Below are positions 2,972-7,758 of a stretch of DNA of 24,301 bases, in pieces. This DNA is from a virus. The stretch is taken from the UHGV virus genome UHGV-1420800; one strand, 5' to 3'. Each line of letters opens with the position of its first letter. Within the stretch, counting starts at the first letter, position 1. The position numbers and the translations under genes are program-made. The notes beneath the pieces were generated by a model. It was not told the origin of the DNA. It saw nothing but the letters and a program-made list of their open reading frames with translations, and ran no database searches.

Positions 2972-3333
2972 CAATGGATTATTCACAGTTAAGTGATTTT
3001 GAAATTAACGTGGCGGTATTCGAAGCCATTCATAACGGATCACCGGATTACAAAGAAGGTGAGAATGGCGATATGGTGTTTGTCTCATTTGAGGGAGACA
3101 TTGTAAACGGAGACGCAGTTGAAGTAGAAGTTGAGCGCGGATCCTTTAACCCATGCGCAAACCCAGCAGACGCATGGCCGATTATTGAAAAATACAGGAT
3201 TAGCATTATCAATCTCGATGAAGACGAGTGGGGTGCACGCGGTGTGGCCTACTGTAAATCTAAGCGAGCTATACATGAAAATCCCCTCCGCGCCGCCATG
3301 ATTGTCTTTCTCATGATGCAGAGAATCCAATAA
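2968..3333 (+). CDS. ninX: NinX-like protein (DUF2591 family)
   Basis: [14 protein letters not shown]...[14 protein letters not shown] is typical of DUF2591/NinX. ATG 2968 overlaps the ninD stop (ATGA). The listed 2932 start would run through ninD. Confidence 0.75.
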
Positions 3334-4316: not shown

Positions 4317-4965
4317 TGGCAGCAAATACCGAAATATTTGGGTAGTTGGCGATCTGCACGGATGCTACACGAACCTGATGAAAAAACTGGAGACGATAGG
4401 ATTCGACACCAAAAAAGACCTGCTTATCTCGGTTGGCGATTTGGTCGATCGCGGTACAGAGAACGTCGAATGCCTGGAATTAATCACATTCCCCTGGTTC
4501 AGAGCTGTACGTGGAAACCATGAGCAAATGATGATTGATGGCTTATCAGAGCGCGGAAACGTCAATCACTGGCTGCTTAATGGCGGTGGCTGGTTCTTTA
4601 ATCTCGATTACGACAAAGAAATTCTGGCCAAAGCTCTTGCCCATAAAGCAGATGAACTTCCGTTAATCATCGAACTGGTGAGTAAAGATAAAAAATATGT
4701 CATCTGCCACGCCGATTATCCTTGTGACGAATACGAGTTTGGAAAGCCAGTTGATCATCAGCAGGTAATCTGGAACCGCGAACGAATCAGCAACTCACAA
4801 GACGGGATCGTGAAAGAAATTAAAGGCGCTGACACGTTCATCTTTGGTCATTCGCCAGCAGTGAAACCGCTCAAATTTGCCAACCAGATGTATATCGATA
4901 CCGGCGCAGTGTTCTGCGGAAATCTCACATTGATTCAGGTACAGGGAGAAGGCGCGTGGGCATAA
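4294..4965 (+). CDS. ninI: Ser/Thr protein phosphatase (lambda PPase, NinI)
   Basis: Metallophosphoesterase motifs GDLHG, GDLVDRG, GNHE and [27 protein letters not shown] is the lambda orf221 N-terminus. The listed 4219 start would overlap most of ninH. Confidence 0.92.
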
Positions 4966-5474
4966 GAGAACTAAACCTCACCAAAGAACAGCATGAGTGG
5001 CTGAATGGCTGGCTTGAACTGTGGGGCGCATGGGTTTATTCAGGTCGTCTGGAAAAGCGCATGAGCAGCGTAATAGCGAAGTTCATGGAGAGCGTAGAGC
5101 CGGGAAGAGTTATGACAAGGCCAATGTGCAATGATGATGATGGAATGTTGATTTCTCAGGTCGTTGATTCCGTCATGTACATTGACAAGAAAGCCTTTGG
5201 CATCCTCCTCAGCTACTACGCTCATGGTTCATCTAAGCGAGCAATTGCATCCTACTATCACGCGACTGCAAAGCCACGCAAGATGTGTGGACGTGGTGGC
5301 GAGGGATGGAGAAAACCTTCACTGGCAACCTGTAGAAACGAAATTGACGACATCCTGAAAGCGTCATTATTTGTTTTATACCAGCCAATGCAAAATGCTT
5401 TCAAAATGCGTAAACGTGTTGAGAAAGTTAAGCATGTTGCTGTTAAAAACCTTGACATGCAATTATCCATTTAG
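4956..5474 (+). CDS. Q: Late-gene antiterminator Q (non-lambda Q type; phage 21/82/P22 gp23-like family)
   Basis: It lies immediately downstream of the nin region and upstream of a strong promoter plus terminator and the lysis genes. The W...LE.WG.W motif near the N-terminus is typical of this Q family. It has a GTG start overlapping the ninI end, and there is no in-frame ATG until residue 36. Confidence 0.78.
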
Positions 5475-5481
5475 CCATAAT
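5452..5481 (+). promoter_or_regulatory. Late promoter PR'-like (sigma70)
   Basis: Perfect -35 TTGACA (5452-5457, inside the last Q codons), an 18-bp spacer, and -10 CATAAT (5476-5481). A -10-like TAAGCT at 5489-5494 in the initially transcribed region is a candidate sigma-dependent pause element for Q loading. Confidence 0.65.
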
Positions 5482-5490
5482 TAGAAGGTA

Positions 5491-5536
5491 AGCTGCCGTT
5501 AGTGACTCTTAAGTTGCAACGGTGGCTTTTTTGTTT
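5491..5536 (+). terminator. Rho-independent terminator tR'-like, directly downstream of PR'
   Basis: AGCTGCCGTT (5491-5500) pairs with AACGGTGGCT (5518-5527), giving 10 bp including 2 G-U pairs, and is followed by TTTTTTGTTT. Sequence I recall as lambda-identical (TGCACAACAGGTAAGAGCATTGA) starts right after the T-tract, as it does after lambda tR'. Confidence 0.7.
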
Positions 5537-5915
5537 GCACAACAGGTAAGAGCATTGAACCCGCAGACCTCGCGGAATTGGTGAAAGGTGCCGCGCAGTA
5601 CTCTTATCGTTGTGGTGAATACGCAGGCTGATGCGTTAATCAGGTGAACGAGACACCCGCCGGTCCGTGATATGGCACACCGTGCCGGTCATATCTGCCG
5701 CGGTTAGGTTTACGAGGATTTCGTAAAGCTGGTCTAGGGTGAAGCCGTGAAAGCGGAGGAAGTAAAACGAGGCGTCGGTACACGCCTATCGTCATTAAGT
5801 CGGAGTTCAGCACCGACCGCCACAACCCAACCTGAGCCGTAGCCACTGGCTATCCTGAATTCATCAGTGATAGTTATGCTGCGGCCTTCTACACATGACC
5901 TTCGTGAAAGCGGGT

Positions 5916-5950
5916 GGCATGAGGTTGCGCTAACAACCTCCTGCCGTTTT
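5916..5950 (+). terminator. Second terminator-like hairpin in the late leader (conserved with lambda)
   Basis: GGCATGAGGTTG (5916-5927) pairs with CAACCTCCTGCC (5934-5945), giving 11 of 12 pairs with a T-C mismatch at 5920/5941. The loop is CGCTAA and GTTTT follows. Confidence 0.5.
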
Positions 5951-6050
5951 GCCCGTGCATATCGGTCACGAACAAATCTGATTACTAAACACAGTAGCCT
6001 GGATTTGTTCTATCAGTAATCGACCTTATTCCTAATTAAATAGAGCAAAT

Positions 6051-6079
6051 CCCCTTATTGTGGGTAAGACATGAAGATG
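6051..6079 (+). promoter_or_regulatory. S-gene translational control region (sdi-like hairpin plus dual starts Met1/Met3)
   Basis: CCCCTTATTGTGGGTAAGACATGAAGATG. The two in-frame ATGs at 6071 and 6077, separated by a Lys codon, are the lambda S107/S105 arrangement. Confidence 0.6.
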
Positions 6080-6394
6080 CCAGAAAAACATGACCTGTTA
6101 GCCGCCATTCTCGCGGCAAAGGAACAAGGCATCGGGGCAATCCTTGCGTTTGCAATGGCGTACCTTCGCGGCAGATATAATGGCGGTGCGTTTACAAAAA
6201 CAGTAATCGACGCAACGATGTGCGCCATTATCGCCTGGTTCATTCGTGACCTTCTCGACTTCGCCGGACTAAGTAGCAATCTCGCTTATATAACGAGCGT
6301 GTTCATCGGCTACATCGGTACTGACTCGATTGGTTCGCTTATCAAACGCTTCGCTGCTAAAAAAGCCGGAGTAGAAGATGGTGGAAATCAATAA
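6071..6394 (+). CDS. S: Holin/antiholin, lambda S type (class I, three TMDs)
   Basis: 107 aa, [41 protein letters not shown]..., essentially lambda S as I remember it. Confidence 0.95.
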
Positions 6395-6854: not shown

Positions 6855-7318
6855 GTAGAGTAACCGCGATTATCTCTGCTCTGGTTATCTGCATCATCAT
6901 CTGTCTGTCATGGGCTGTTAATCATTACCGTGATAACGCTATCGCCTACAAAGAGCAGCGCGATAACAAGGCCAGTGAACTGGAGAAGGCGAACGCCACC
7001 ATTACTGACATGCAGCAGCGCCAGCGTGATGCTGATGCACTCGATGCTAAATACACGAAGGAGTTAGCTGATGCGAAAGCTGAAAATGATGCTCTTCGGC
7101 GCAAGCTTGATAATGGTGGCAGGGTGCTCGTCAAAGGAAAATGCCCTGTGCCATCCTCAGACGAAACCTCCAGCGCCTCCGGCATGGGCAATGATGCCAC
7201 CGTCGAACTCTCTCCAGTTGCTGGACGAAACGTTCTCGGTGTCCGGGACGGAATTATCCGCGACCAAACAGCACTGAGAACGCTTCAGGAATACATCAGG
7301 ACGCAATGCCTTCGATGA
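6851..7318 (+). CDS. Rz: i-spanin Rz (inner-membrane subunit)
   Basis: N-terminal TMD ([18 protein letters not shown]), coiled-coil periplasmic domain, and an ATGA overlap with the R stop. The N-terminal ~83 aa are lambda-like and the C-terminal part differs. Confidence 0.9.
7071..7277 (+). CDS. Rz1: o-spanin Rz1 (outer-membrane lipoprotein), embedded in the +1 frame of Rz
   Basis: AAGGAG lies 7 nt upstream of ATG 7071. The signal peptide has the lipobox VAGC (Cys19) and the mature part is proline-rich (KPPAPPAW), as in lambda Rz1. Confidence 0.85.
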
Positions 7319-7452: not shown

Positions 7453-7758
7453 CGTTGAGATAAGAGCCAGTTCATTACAAATCCTATCTACGGGTGGGCT
7501 TGATAATGAAACCGGAGTTAATTTCTGGTCACTAATTAACGGCAGTACAGCGAAACAACCCAAGCCAGTAAGCGGGGAAATAACACTGGCAGCCACTGAA
7601 AGATGAACCTCCTGCCTTATGGCAAAAAAGATTCTTTGTGGTGGCGGACTGATGGAAAGACATCGGATAGAATCAAGCAGTGGCTAGGGTAGTTCCCGAA
7701 AAGCGGACTCGTCACCGCCTGCCACTGAATCTATGGCGAACAACTAGACGAGGTTGTG

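Follow-up and report, generated by a model that had tools for sequence, protein, structure and literature searches.

The viral genome UHGV-1420800 was analysed as one stretch of 24,301 nucleotides (the window; coordinates given without a locus name are counted from its first letter), and the subject of this work is a 214-nt tRNA-like RNA element on its plus strand (5611-5824), which lies in the late leader between the terminator tR' and the holin gene S. The phage CUS-3 matches the window at 99.7% identity over 5480-6070, and by this sequence match the window is essentially CUS-3, a P22-like phage. The Q gene (4956-5474) is of the phage-21 type, and so is the late promoter pR' (5452-5481, plus strand; TTGACA, an 18-nt spacer and CATAAT, 11 of 12 matches), whose counterpart in Sf6 carries the annotation "nearly identical to phage 21 late promoter". 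The terminator tR' (about 5491-5535, plus strand), which overlaps the qut region, has a stem GCTGCCGTT/AACGGTGGC followed by T6; this stem was read directly from the sequence, and the sequence is identical to the annotated Sf6/phage-21-like terminator. Holin S starts at 6071. By the standard scheme of lambdoid late transcription, 5537-6070 would be the transcribed leader of the late operon, carried by all Q-modified transcripts. Along this leader lie, all on the plus strand, an upstream CACAAC motif (5538-5543), a stem-closed cassette that we call module A (5545-5608), the tRNA-like main element, and a lambda-like remainder up to the S start codon (5827-6070), which is named "bsq3 boundary sequence" in the CUS-3 record, where the flanks are labelled as boundary sequences bsq4 and bsq3.

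A first-pass annotation, made from the letters alone, had described the region between tR' and S as a hairpin-dense block poor in open reading frames (ORFs), with a single substituted and GC-richer core between lambda-like flanks. The block is as described, and most of the stems listed in it are real. The GC content is 0.50-0.58 in the core, compared with 0.34-0.40 around pR' and tR' and 0.36-0.38 just before S, and alignment with lambda, Sf6 and phage P1 bears out the lambda-like flanks. The single core did not stand: a conserved island in mid-block (about 5596-5620) also matches lambda, and there are thus two substitutions, the interior of module A (about 5561-5595) and the interior of the main element (about 5621-5817), which is closed by a helix designated P1. 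When 5539-5829 was compared with phage genomes by blastn, the core fell into pieces that differ in distribution. The piece at about 5596-5829 was found at 98% identity in IME10, and at 81-85% identity both in a Hafnia phage, directly upstream of tRNA-Arg, tRNA-Thr and holin, and in an Aeromonas phage, in the intergenic region before terminase; its first 42 nt follow closely on tRNA-Asn and tRNA-Thr in phage P1 and occur in dozens of phages of Klebsiella, Erwinia, Cronobacter and other hosts. That there are two cassettes rather than one, that the main one is tRNA-like and that it belongs to a very large family were points absent from the first-pass annotation.

Covariation among relatives places 5611-5824 in a large, unannotated family of structured phage RNAs with a four-way-junction fold. 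The element is closed by helix P1, in which UGUGGUG (5611-5617) pairs with CGCCACA (5818-5824) over 7 bp; this helix is the analogue of an acceptor stem, and in the lineage of the window it reaches 5609-5826. The linker J1 (AAU, 5618-5620; AAU in 196 of 218 members) leads into H1 (ACGCA-GGCUGA-UGCGU, 5621-5636), a 5-bp hairpin analogous to the D-arm, all five pairs of which covary. A variable domain (5637-5798), the analogue of the anticodon arm, ends with AA before H2 and holds the helix P3 (5643-5651 with 5789-5796), an inner multi-helix part (5655-5755) and the hairpin AGGCG..CGCCU (5770-5787). H2 (GUCGG-AGUUCAGCA-CCGAC, 5799-5817) is the T-arm analogue, with three of its five pairs doubly changed; it abuts the 3' strand of helix P1, and since no spacer lies between them, the two are taken to form a coaxial helix of 12 bp. 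The H1 loop (GCUGA, 5627-5631) is complementary to the H2 loop (UCAGC, 5807-5811), with which it pairs over 5 bp. H1 and H2 correspond to two of the stems proposed at first pass (ACGCA/TGCGT and GTCGG/CCGAC), and both covary across the family.

The relatives were collected by exact-pattern scans with a 5' motif (TGAATRCGCAGGCTGATGC) in IMG/VR and in a one-genome-per-species collection, and with a 3' motif (GCCGGAGATCAGCRCCGG) in IMG/VR; the 5' motif gave at least 120 loci in each of the two collections and the 3' motif at least 120 loci. From more than 400 phage and prophage loci, 218 distinct members were parsed. The hosts named for the loci of the one-genome-per-species collection include Enterobacterales, Pseudomonas, Burkholderiales, Xanthomonadales, Halomonas and several alpha-proteobacteria; the host labels from other phyla on a few metagenome-assembled genomes should be treated cautiously. 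The consensus runs from helix P1 through AAU, H1 (5 bp, loop GGCUGA), an insert and H2 (5 bp) to the 3' strand of helix P1. The insert measures 19-327 nt (median 78) and ends in AA or AU among the 218 members, the H2 loop is usually AGAUCAGCA, given as (A)G(A/U)UCAGCA, and the spacer between H2 and helix P1 is zero in 209 of the 218. The C/A-rich, G-poor character of the 8 nt after helix P1, seen over 209 members, is shared by the 3' flank of the element in the window (5825-5835: ACCCAACCTGA); this flank may be rut-like, or an unstructured stretch for landing or processing.

Support for the fold comes from compensatory change. In a four-way alignment the closing helix was compensated between the window (GUGGUG/CGCCAC) and phage P1 (GUGAUG/CAUCAC), with two conserved hairpins inside it. 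Among 149 trimmed sequences (alignment A3), double compensatory changes were found in 15 of 22 pairs, all seven pairs of helix P1 among them, and the covariation score was 0.341, compared with 0.098 for shuffled partners (0 of 500 reach the observed value) and 0.02-0.08 with partners slid by 1-3 columns. The parser by which members were recognised demanded pairing, and an offset-reading test with no pairing condition was used as an unbiased control. In the 86 distinct cases with both motifs, positions 1-7 of helix P1 were paired in 95-98%, each with 2-5 standard pair types and with at least three types at the five positions that the search pattern did not fix; pairing then drops to 67%, 52% and 30% at positions 8-10, and therefore helix P1 is exactly 7 bp long. 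Loci found by the 3' motif alone carry variant H1 stems, including GAGCA/UGCUC, GCCCG/CGGGC, GCGUA/UACGC and GUGCA/UGCAC. The plus strand is indicated as the RNA strand by the many G-U pairs in this orientation.

A covariance model (R1) was built from 90 members, the window sequence being absent from its seed alignment (A4). R1 matches the window at 5611-5824 with 54.7 bits (E = 2.5e-13) over model positions 1-126 of 126 and finds no other significant match there. The features by which members are recognised, namely the 7-bp helix P1, the AAU linker, the abutment of H2 on helix P1 and the complementary loops, are all present in the window sequence, and its minimum free energy (MFE) fold reproduces helix P1, H1, P3 and H2. 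The earlier suggestion of a structured RNA on late transcripts is thus strongly upheld as far as structure goes, by the R1 match and by helices that covary over 149-218 relatives, and the interpretation as a whole is partly upheld. The folding energy is unremarkable and not significant alone (z = -1.23 for 5611-5824 and -1.82 for 5537-5915); thermodynamics would leave room for chance, and the support comes from covariation and not from folding energy.

The inner stems of the variable domain were assessed with nearer relatives. For nine distinct relatives with the long insert type of the window, RNAalifold returned 38 pairs, among them those of P3, an inner helix and the invariant AGGCG/CGCCU hairpin, and 22 of the 38 show compensatory changes. 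Comparison of the window with its nearest variant, the locus L044, supports the inner stems: GATATG..CATATC is compensated there as GATGCG..CGCATC, TTTACGA/TCGTAAA as TTGCCGA/TCGGCAA, and the hairpin CCGT-GAAA-GCGG as CCGC-GTGA-GCGG with a loop that is still GNRA, all three having been predicted from the single sequence. As AGGCG/CGCCT is invariant in the nine relatives, its pairing is neither supported nor contradicted by them. A further predicted stem, TAGCC/GGCTA (5840-5852), lies outside the main element.

The H1 loop GCUGA and the H2 loop UCAGC are complementary in about 98% of sequences (98.4% of cells) and nearly invariant. Compensated loop pairs occur as GUCGA:UCGAC in three independent loci, each with a different helix P1 (L327, L393 and L414), and as GCCGA:UCGGC in L442; a few members show single uncompensated changes. 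Since three pair types are thus found, the loop-loop helix covaries. When the H1 loop was left free in the scans, most of the matches were chance ones within coding DNA, and only hits parsed with the full architecture were used. The covariation is equally compatible with pairing within one molecule and between two.

Pairing between molecules would make the element a self-assembling RNA of the GOLLD, ROOL or manA kind, in which H1 and H2 loops join different molecules into dimers, rings or higher-order complexes that would enclose the variable domain or display it. The phage RNAs GOLLD and ROOL, which are encoded near tRNA islands, assemble through intermolecular kissing loops, the GOLLD linker sometimes containing tRNAs (PMC12286853), and manA, a small phage-associated RNA, forms a 60-mer (bioRxiv 10.64898/2026.07.01.735769). 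The present family shares with these RNAs the phage or prophage origin, the location by or in tRNA islands, and a conserved core around a poorly conserved linker that can hold tRNAs, and it shares with GOLLD and ROOL the conserved kissing-loop complementarity and probably expression in lytic growth (PMC12286853). The complementarity of the loops is conserved and covarying without discriminating between cis and trans, the tRNA neighbourhood and nested tRNAs are common to this family and GOLLD/ROOL, and, by geometric reasoning, two 5-bp hairpins at one junction are awkward partners for an intramolecular helix of 5 bp. Against this, D- and T-loops meet within one molecule in tRNA, so that by homology pairing in cis is simpler, and the Rfam models of GOLLD, ROOL and manA gave no match in the window or in 36 member loci. 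The family is also 5-10 times smaller than GOLLD and ROOL (about 85-230 nt compared with about 580-800 nt), unrelated to them in sequence and in its tRNA-like fold, and found mainly in Proteobacteria; oligomerisation has been shown for them, whereas here loop complementarity is read from the sequence. Self-assembly, which would be compatible with the autonomous RNA proposed below, is on balance a rather unlikely property of the element.

The likeness to tRNA bears on the origin of the family, which is probably tRNA-derived, with helix P1 as the acceptor stem, H1 as the D-arm, H2 as the T-arm and the insert in the anticodon and variable region. The geometry agrees with that of tRNA: the terminal helix has 7 bp, a hairpin of 5 bp abuts it directly, and a 5' linker of 2-3 nt leads to a first hairpin, after which comes a variable domain closed by a helix of its own. 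This geometry, together with the form found in the phage HK75, is the reason for proposing a tRNA origin. In HK75 (L489, 773-898) the same slot of the late leader holds module A, helix P1 and flanks as in the window, yet the position of H1 is taken by GCUC-AAUGGC-GAGC, a consensus D-arm, and that of H2 by GCCGG-UUCGAUU-CCGGC, a consensus T-arm, with a 75-nt insert where the anticodon arm would lie. No tRNA was called in the HK75 form by ARAGORN, and its T-arm with the 3' (acceptor) strand gave a partial match to the Rfam tmRNA/tRNA clan below threshold (12.8 bits, gathering threshold 47). In the family at large, the contact between D-loop and T-loop appears to have been replaced by a Watson-Crick helix between the loops.

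The four-way junction and the 7-bp terminal helix recall tRNA-like domains such as the tRNA-like domain (TLD) of tmRNA, the Y RNA YrlA, viral tRNA-like structures (TLS) and mascRNA; with tRNA the element shares the abutting 5-bp hairpin (the would-be 12-bp stack of acceptor stem and T-arm), the linker of 2-3 nt, a D-arm-like hairpin and loops in contact, and with tmRNA a large variable domain in place of the anticodon arm. It differs from tRNA-like RNAs in that its loops, AG(A/U)UCAGCA and GGCUGA, form an antiparallel Watson-Crick helix of 5 bp and do not follow the D- and T-loop consensus, and from tRNA and tmRNA in having neither CCA, anticodon arm nor tag ORF. ARAGORN found no tRNA gene in the window, and the Rfam tRNA model (RF00005) had no match in 5400-6100 at E up to 10; with these results, and with no anticodon arm and no encoded CCA, the element was rejected as a tRNA gene or pseudogene. 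An apparent 3' "CCA" turned out to be part of the extended stem of one subgroup. No tmRNA was found in the window by ARAGORN or RF00023, and the Rfam models of tRNA, tmRNA and YrlA do not detect the element.

Searches among other known RNAs were also negative. The family carries no Rfam 15 model: in the window no model covers the element even at E up to 10, where, beside what reaches the gathering threshold, a chance-level SNORA40 was the only hit and no riboswitch appeared, and nothing covers it at the gathering threshold in 36 member loci. Searching by sequence strings and keywords found no description of the family in the literature, although the coverage of such searching is incomplete and an earlier description elsewhere is possible. 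Integron attC sites or transposon ends were rejected, as the arms of the closing helix covary instead of staying conserved and there is one copy per locus. In the insert of one locus (L129, 3652-3846, minus strand) a hammerhead-like core (CUGAUGAG..CGAAAC) was seen by eye, below the Rfam threshold, and no claim is made for it.

The settings in which the element occurs are diverse. One group of loci has NinG, RusA and Q upstream and holin, endolysin and Rz downstream, which is the late leader as in the window; in a second, the element follows a CI-like repressor on the same strand and precedes an N-like antiterminator by about 20 nt. At least 17 loci have the element about 25 nt after a canonical nutL (boxA TGCTCTTTAACAA and a boxB of P22 or lambda type), and because this separate nutL lies upstream in the PL-leader loci, the element is not nutL itself. 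Of 207 members with sufficient sequence on their flanks, 35 (17%) have a terminator within 120 nt downstream, among them 19 in which an intrinsic terminator starts 0-12 nt after helix P1. The late-leader slot itself holds tRNA-Asn and tRNA-Thr in Sf6 and a short family member in HK629 (72.9 bits). In phage P1 (L004, OP279344.1) the element occurs in tandem at 1518-1648, 1947-2044 and 2208-2328; two of the copies are clear, with 92.8 and 65.8 bits, and one is weak, with 21.9 bits and E about 3e-4. These copies lie between tRNA-Thr and tciA, interleaved with module-A-like stems, and a "hypothetical protein" is annotated between them at 1676-1849.

The association with tRNA genes extends beyond these phages. 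Same-strand tRNA genes lie within -600 to +900 nt of the element in 37 of 305 loci; four tRNAs are interleaved with two elements in L059, and in L101 a tRNA-Met begins 6 nt past the element. The insert can itself contain tRNA sequence: a complete tRNA-Ser (7100-7178) is nested in the element of L103 (7016-7201), and the insert of L122 (3946-4054) has a partial tRNA, a D-arm and T-arm "elbow" fragment. On this sequence evidence, the variable domain can serve as a slot for other RNAs as cargo.

One variant is 94-96% identical, insert included, in a lambdoid prophage (L015), the N4-like phage IME11, the 47-kb phages Bas77-80 and several Klebsiella phages, and it occurs in the Pseudomonas phage CF23a at 88% identity (L490 for IME11, L491 for Bas80 and L492 for CF23a, each at 1496-1621), which suggests recent horizontal transfer of a unit of about 125 nt between phages. 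In the virulent Bas80, the element and a tRNA-Met are on the strand opposite to the surrounding genes, and annotated coding sequences (CDSs) overlap the element. Settings so diverse speak for a self-contained RNA module that moves horizontally, and against a regulator of one gene. The long variant of the window is present in 119 of 5426 complete E. coli genomes, with a 100% identical element in the CUS-3-type prophage strains RS218 and UTI89, and the short variant of phage P1 type in 921 of the 5426, at 732 chromosomal and 304 plasmid places; no annotated feature lies over the element among the E. coli matches listed for either variant, and its phage copies bear no RNA annotation in the records examined, a few having automatic hypothetical ORFs. 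In HK629 (L488, 132-644) pR' and the element are separated by a gene for an HNH endonuclease, a cluster of AP2/HNH-type proteins occurs near the element in 14 loci, and these neighbours may link it to mobility mediated by homing endonucleases.

Lambda itself seems to have kept the shell of the cassette. Its slot (L312, 1060-1140, corresponding to lambda 44859-44939) retains module A, GAAU and helix P1 (GUUGUGCUG/CAGCACAAC, compensated with respect to that of the window); its interior contains neither H1 nor H2, and the R1 score is 10.7 bits, so that the lambda tR'-S leader looks like a decayed cassette, a degenerate remnant. By extension, the element in general might be a decaying tRNA relic or a recombination boundary without RNA function, its short conserved sequences being mosaic joints. 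The bsq4/bsq3 annotation of the CUS-3 flanks, the non-matching interior between the retained ends in lambda and the plainly mosaic character of the slot would all accord with this. It is disfavoured by covariation, as three helices and the loop pairing are compensated in hundreds of divergent copies from alpha-, beta- and gamma-proteobacterial hosts, and the identity of 81-85% kept among the phages of E. coli, Hafnia and Aeromonas is likewise at odds with decay; as a general account it is very improbable.

The evidence leans towards an autonomous and probably processed RNA. As we propose it, the RNA would be transcribed within every Q-antiterminated late transcript, host nucleases that process tRNAs or leaders would cut it out, and the freed molecule would be a stable RNA of tRNA-like form that acts on its own in lytic growth. 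A conserved cellular partner would recognise the invariant elbow, and the variable domain would be cargo. The element would be a functional neighbour of the tRNA genes found at this site in Sf6, phage 21 and P22-like phages, and an alternative to them, and not a dedicated regulator of S. We put the chances of this scenario, with an autonomous tRNA-like RNA cut from the late leader by processing enzymes of the host and active in lytic growth, at about even.

Several points weigh against this proposal. Excision and action in trans are themselves inferred. With negative results from ARAGORN and Rfam the element is not a working tRNA, its recognition by RNase P is putative, and NCCA follows helix P1 in just 13 of 209 members. 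HK75 may owe its form to recombination with a tRNA gene instead of being an evolutionary intermediate. The percentages of paired positions among the 149 sequences are inflated, because the parser demanded pairing. The loop sequences are nearly invariant, more so than pairing alone requires, which suggests a sequence-specific partner. Finally, in 48 of 207 members (23%), notably those before N-like antiterminators, a ribosome-binding site and ORF follow at a distance of 19-77 nt, an arrangement that would suit a role in cis too.

A role in cis was one of the options raised at first pass, and as a dedicated cis-regulator of S the element finds little favour, the module recurring in unrelated contexts. 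In its general form the idea would be a leader regulator, either a riboswitch-like sensor or a put-like element acting on read-through or translation of the downstream operon. The location in leaders of operons controlled by antitermination speaks for it, as do the proximity to a ribosome-binding site in the 23% just mentioned, the terminator that follows in 17%, and the pairing of GUUGUG with the upstream CACAAC, which competes with helix P1. Set against these are the want of a common expression platform, with downstream genes and distances that vary widely, the 245 nt between the element and S in the window, and an insert of 19-327 nt, sometimes with a tRNA, which is unlike a ligand pocket; no Rfam riboswitch matched, and the HK022 put sites have no R1 match. 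The put RNA is a 70-nt, two-hairpin, V-shaped RNA that binds the zinc-binding domain of the RNA polymerase beta' subunit (PMC9378689). The element resembles HK022 put and lambda nut in its position, in the leader of an early-left or late operon and beyond a terminator or nut site; it differs from nut in that PL-leader loci carry their own boxA and boxB upstream of it, and a put-like antiterminator was rejected on architecture (PMC9378689) and on the negative R1 search of the put sites. Regulation of the downstream operon in cis is therefore an improbable function for the element.

Another role in cis would be that of a processing or insulator module, a "tRNA punctuation" in which the fold recruits RNase P, E or III, the cut separates a regulatory 5' RNA (qut/tR', or nutL in PL leaders) from the body of the mRNA, and the released RNA has no further role. 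The element does lie between regulatory leader parts and the first gene, between tR' and S here and between nutL and N in at least 17 loci. In lambda, the position between nutL and N holds an RNase III site that relieves N autorepression, which counts in favour of such a module. Helix P1 reaches about 20 bp in the PL group, long enough for RNase III, and real tRNAs occupy the same slot in Sf6. Punctuation leaves unexplained the near-invariant loops and their pairing, the conserved long inserts, the copies that end operons with a terminator of their own, the tandem copies of phage P1 and the opposite-strand unit of Bas80, and we regard it as an unlikely explanation.

It is a tentative suggestion, which we would not press, that the family is an undescribed class of phage-borne, tRNA-derived RNAs with a Watson-Crick elbow, a cargo slot, horizontal spread among temperate and virulent phages of many bacterial lineages, the classical phages P1 and HK629 included, and a specific function in the lytic cycle. 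Within such a class, the RNA might serve as a decoy or sponge that occupies a conserved host factor with affinity for tRNA, such as a processing enzyme or a defence nuclease that attacks tRNAs, or it might assemble itself into an RNA particle. The idea of a decoy or anti-defence RNA, already voiced in the first-pass annotation, is possible in this setting.

Two groups of small RNAs invite comparison. The prophage small RNAs (sRNAs) of the Q-lysis region are of Hfq type, about 60-90 nt long, end in intrinsic terminators and are confined to Escherichia and Shigella (bioRxiv 10.64898/2026.05.13.724894). STnc100, AgvB, AsxR, the Pas sRNAs and StxS share with the element the neighbourhood in lambdoid prophages (bioRxiv 10.64898/2026.05.13.724894); the element family is far broader and has no fixed terminator, and RF02076, RF02702 and RF02703 had no match in the window. 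The other comparison is with phage T4. RNAs C and D of T4 (rnaC and rnaD) are small stable RNAs of unknown function that are co-transcribed and processed with the phage tRNAs, and they differ from the present family in being known only from T4-like phages.

Coding potential was considered as a further explanation of the conservation. Between tR' and S the plus strand holds only a 31-aa ORF with a GTG start (5747-5842) and a 50-aa ORF (5867-6019), the start codons of which are missing in lambda (GTA and ACG there). The long minus-strand ORF (5640-5846, 68 aa), dismissed at first pass as noise, indeed shows no coding signature: compared with L044, its substitutions are distributed 11:9:12 over the codon positions and two 1-nt indels break the frame. 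This comparison of codon positions and indels supports no conserved small ORF that would explain the conservation. A small protein encoded by the 68-aa minus ORF or the 31-aa plus ORF might still be argued from the gene callers, which annotate the minus ORF in the phage Huey and a comparable ORF in the Hafnia phage, and from the stop-free minus frames of 34-61 codons in all nine relatives with the long insert type. Such frames are expected from composition, the minus strand being, as we infer, pyrimidine-rich, and neither the length nor the sequence of the insert is conserved across the family; with the substitution pattern and the frame-shifting indels, a small protein is scarcely credible. 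Huey annotates 5876-6019 (plus) and 5640-5846 (minus) as hypothetical proteins, which are probably artefacts of gene calling over RNA.

Upstream of the main element, module A is closed by an 8-bp stem of GGTAAGAG (5545-5552) with CTCTTATC (5601-5608), and its interior includes the hairpin CCGC-AGACCTC-GCGG (5561-5575). The stem is conserved in lambda, HK75, HK629, phage P1 and many contigs, with the interior replaced, and a compensatory change is seen in the copies of phage P1 (GGTAAGGGTA/TACCCTTACC compared with GGTAAGGGCA/TGCTCTTACC). The flanking motifs are conserved as well, as CACAAC-AGGTAAGRGCATT ... CAGTGCTCTTWCC-GTTGTG, of which CACAAC-AGGTAAGRGCATT is a conserved junction motif of lambdoid late leaders and of phage P1. 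In phage P1, L049, L055 and L085 the interior has T-arm-like GGGTTCGAATCCC sequences. The first-pass annotation had joined CACAAC..TAAGAG with CTCTTA..GTTGTG in one stem: its TAAGAG/CTCTTA half is the stem of module A and is compensated in phage P1, whereas CACAAC/GTTGTG is a competing alternative only. Across the family, the partner of GTTGTG (5609-5614) is the downstream CACAAC (5819-5824), as in helix P1. The MFE fold of the window uses this downstream partner and the centroid structure the upstream CACAAC (5538-5543), and the competition predicted by these folds may equally be functional or a by-product of tandem cassettes. The conserved 5' flank, (C)AGTGCTCTTTCC, looks like a boxA; a boxA/boxB (nut) reading of it was rejected, as this sequence forms the 3' side of the stem of module A and covaries with the opposite side.

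Should the family indeed be new to the literature, some of the best-studied phages carry a conserved structured RNA that has been overlooked, with two to three copies in phage P1 and related forms across lambdoid, P22-like, N4-like and T1-sized phages. It would join GOLLD, ROOL and manA among the phage RNAs of unknown function that accompany tRNA genes, and because the element is small and resides in genetically tractable E. coli phages, the role of tRNA-island RNAs is directly testable with it. In lambdoid phages, the ORF-free gap between Q and S looks like a site at which RNA cassettes are exchanged, be they tRNAs, tRNA-like RNAs or, in lambda, decayed remains. For RNA evolution, the family offers an example in which a tRNA fold has apparently changed, a tertiary contact having been replaced by a helix.

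A few observations were made beside these. In HK022 (L493), the only R1 match is a weak one at 33583-33690 on the plus strand (18 bits, E about 0.003), in the nin region and away from the put sites, which may be a degenerate relative. Other structured RNAs occur near members of the family: a Proteo-phage-1 RNA (RF03044, 76.8 bits) lies at 3205-3282 on the minus strand of L036, about 120 nt upstream of the element, and an abiF RNA lies near the element of L082 (73-109, minus strand). In the window, the only Rfam match at gathering score is an int-alpA RNA (RF02996, 42.3 bits) at 7677-7739 on the plus strand, downstream of the lysis genes, and the same model also matches the locus L110 at 264-330 on the minus strand.

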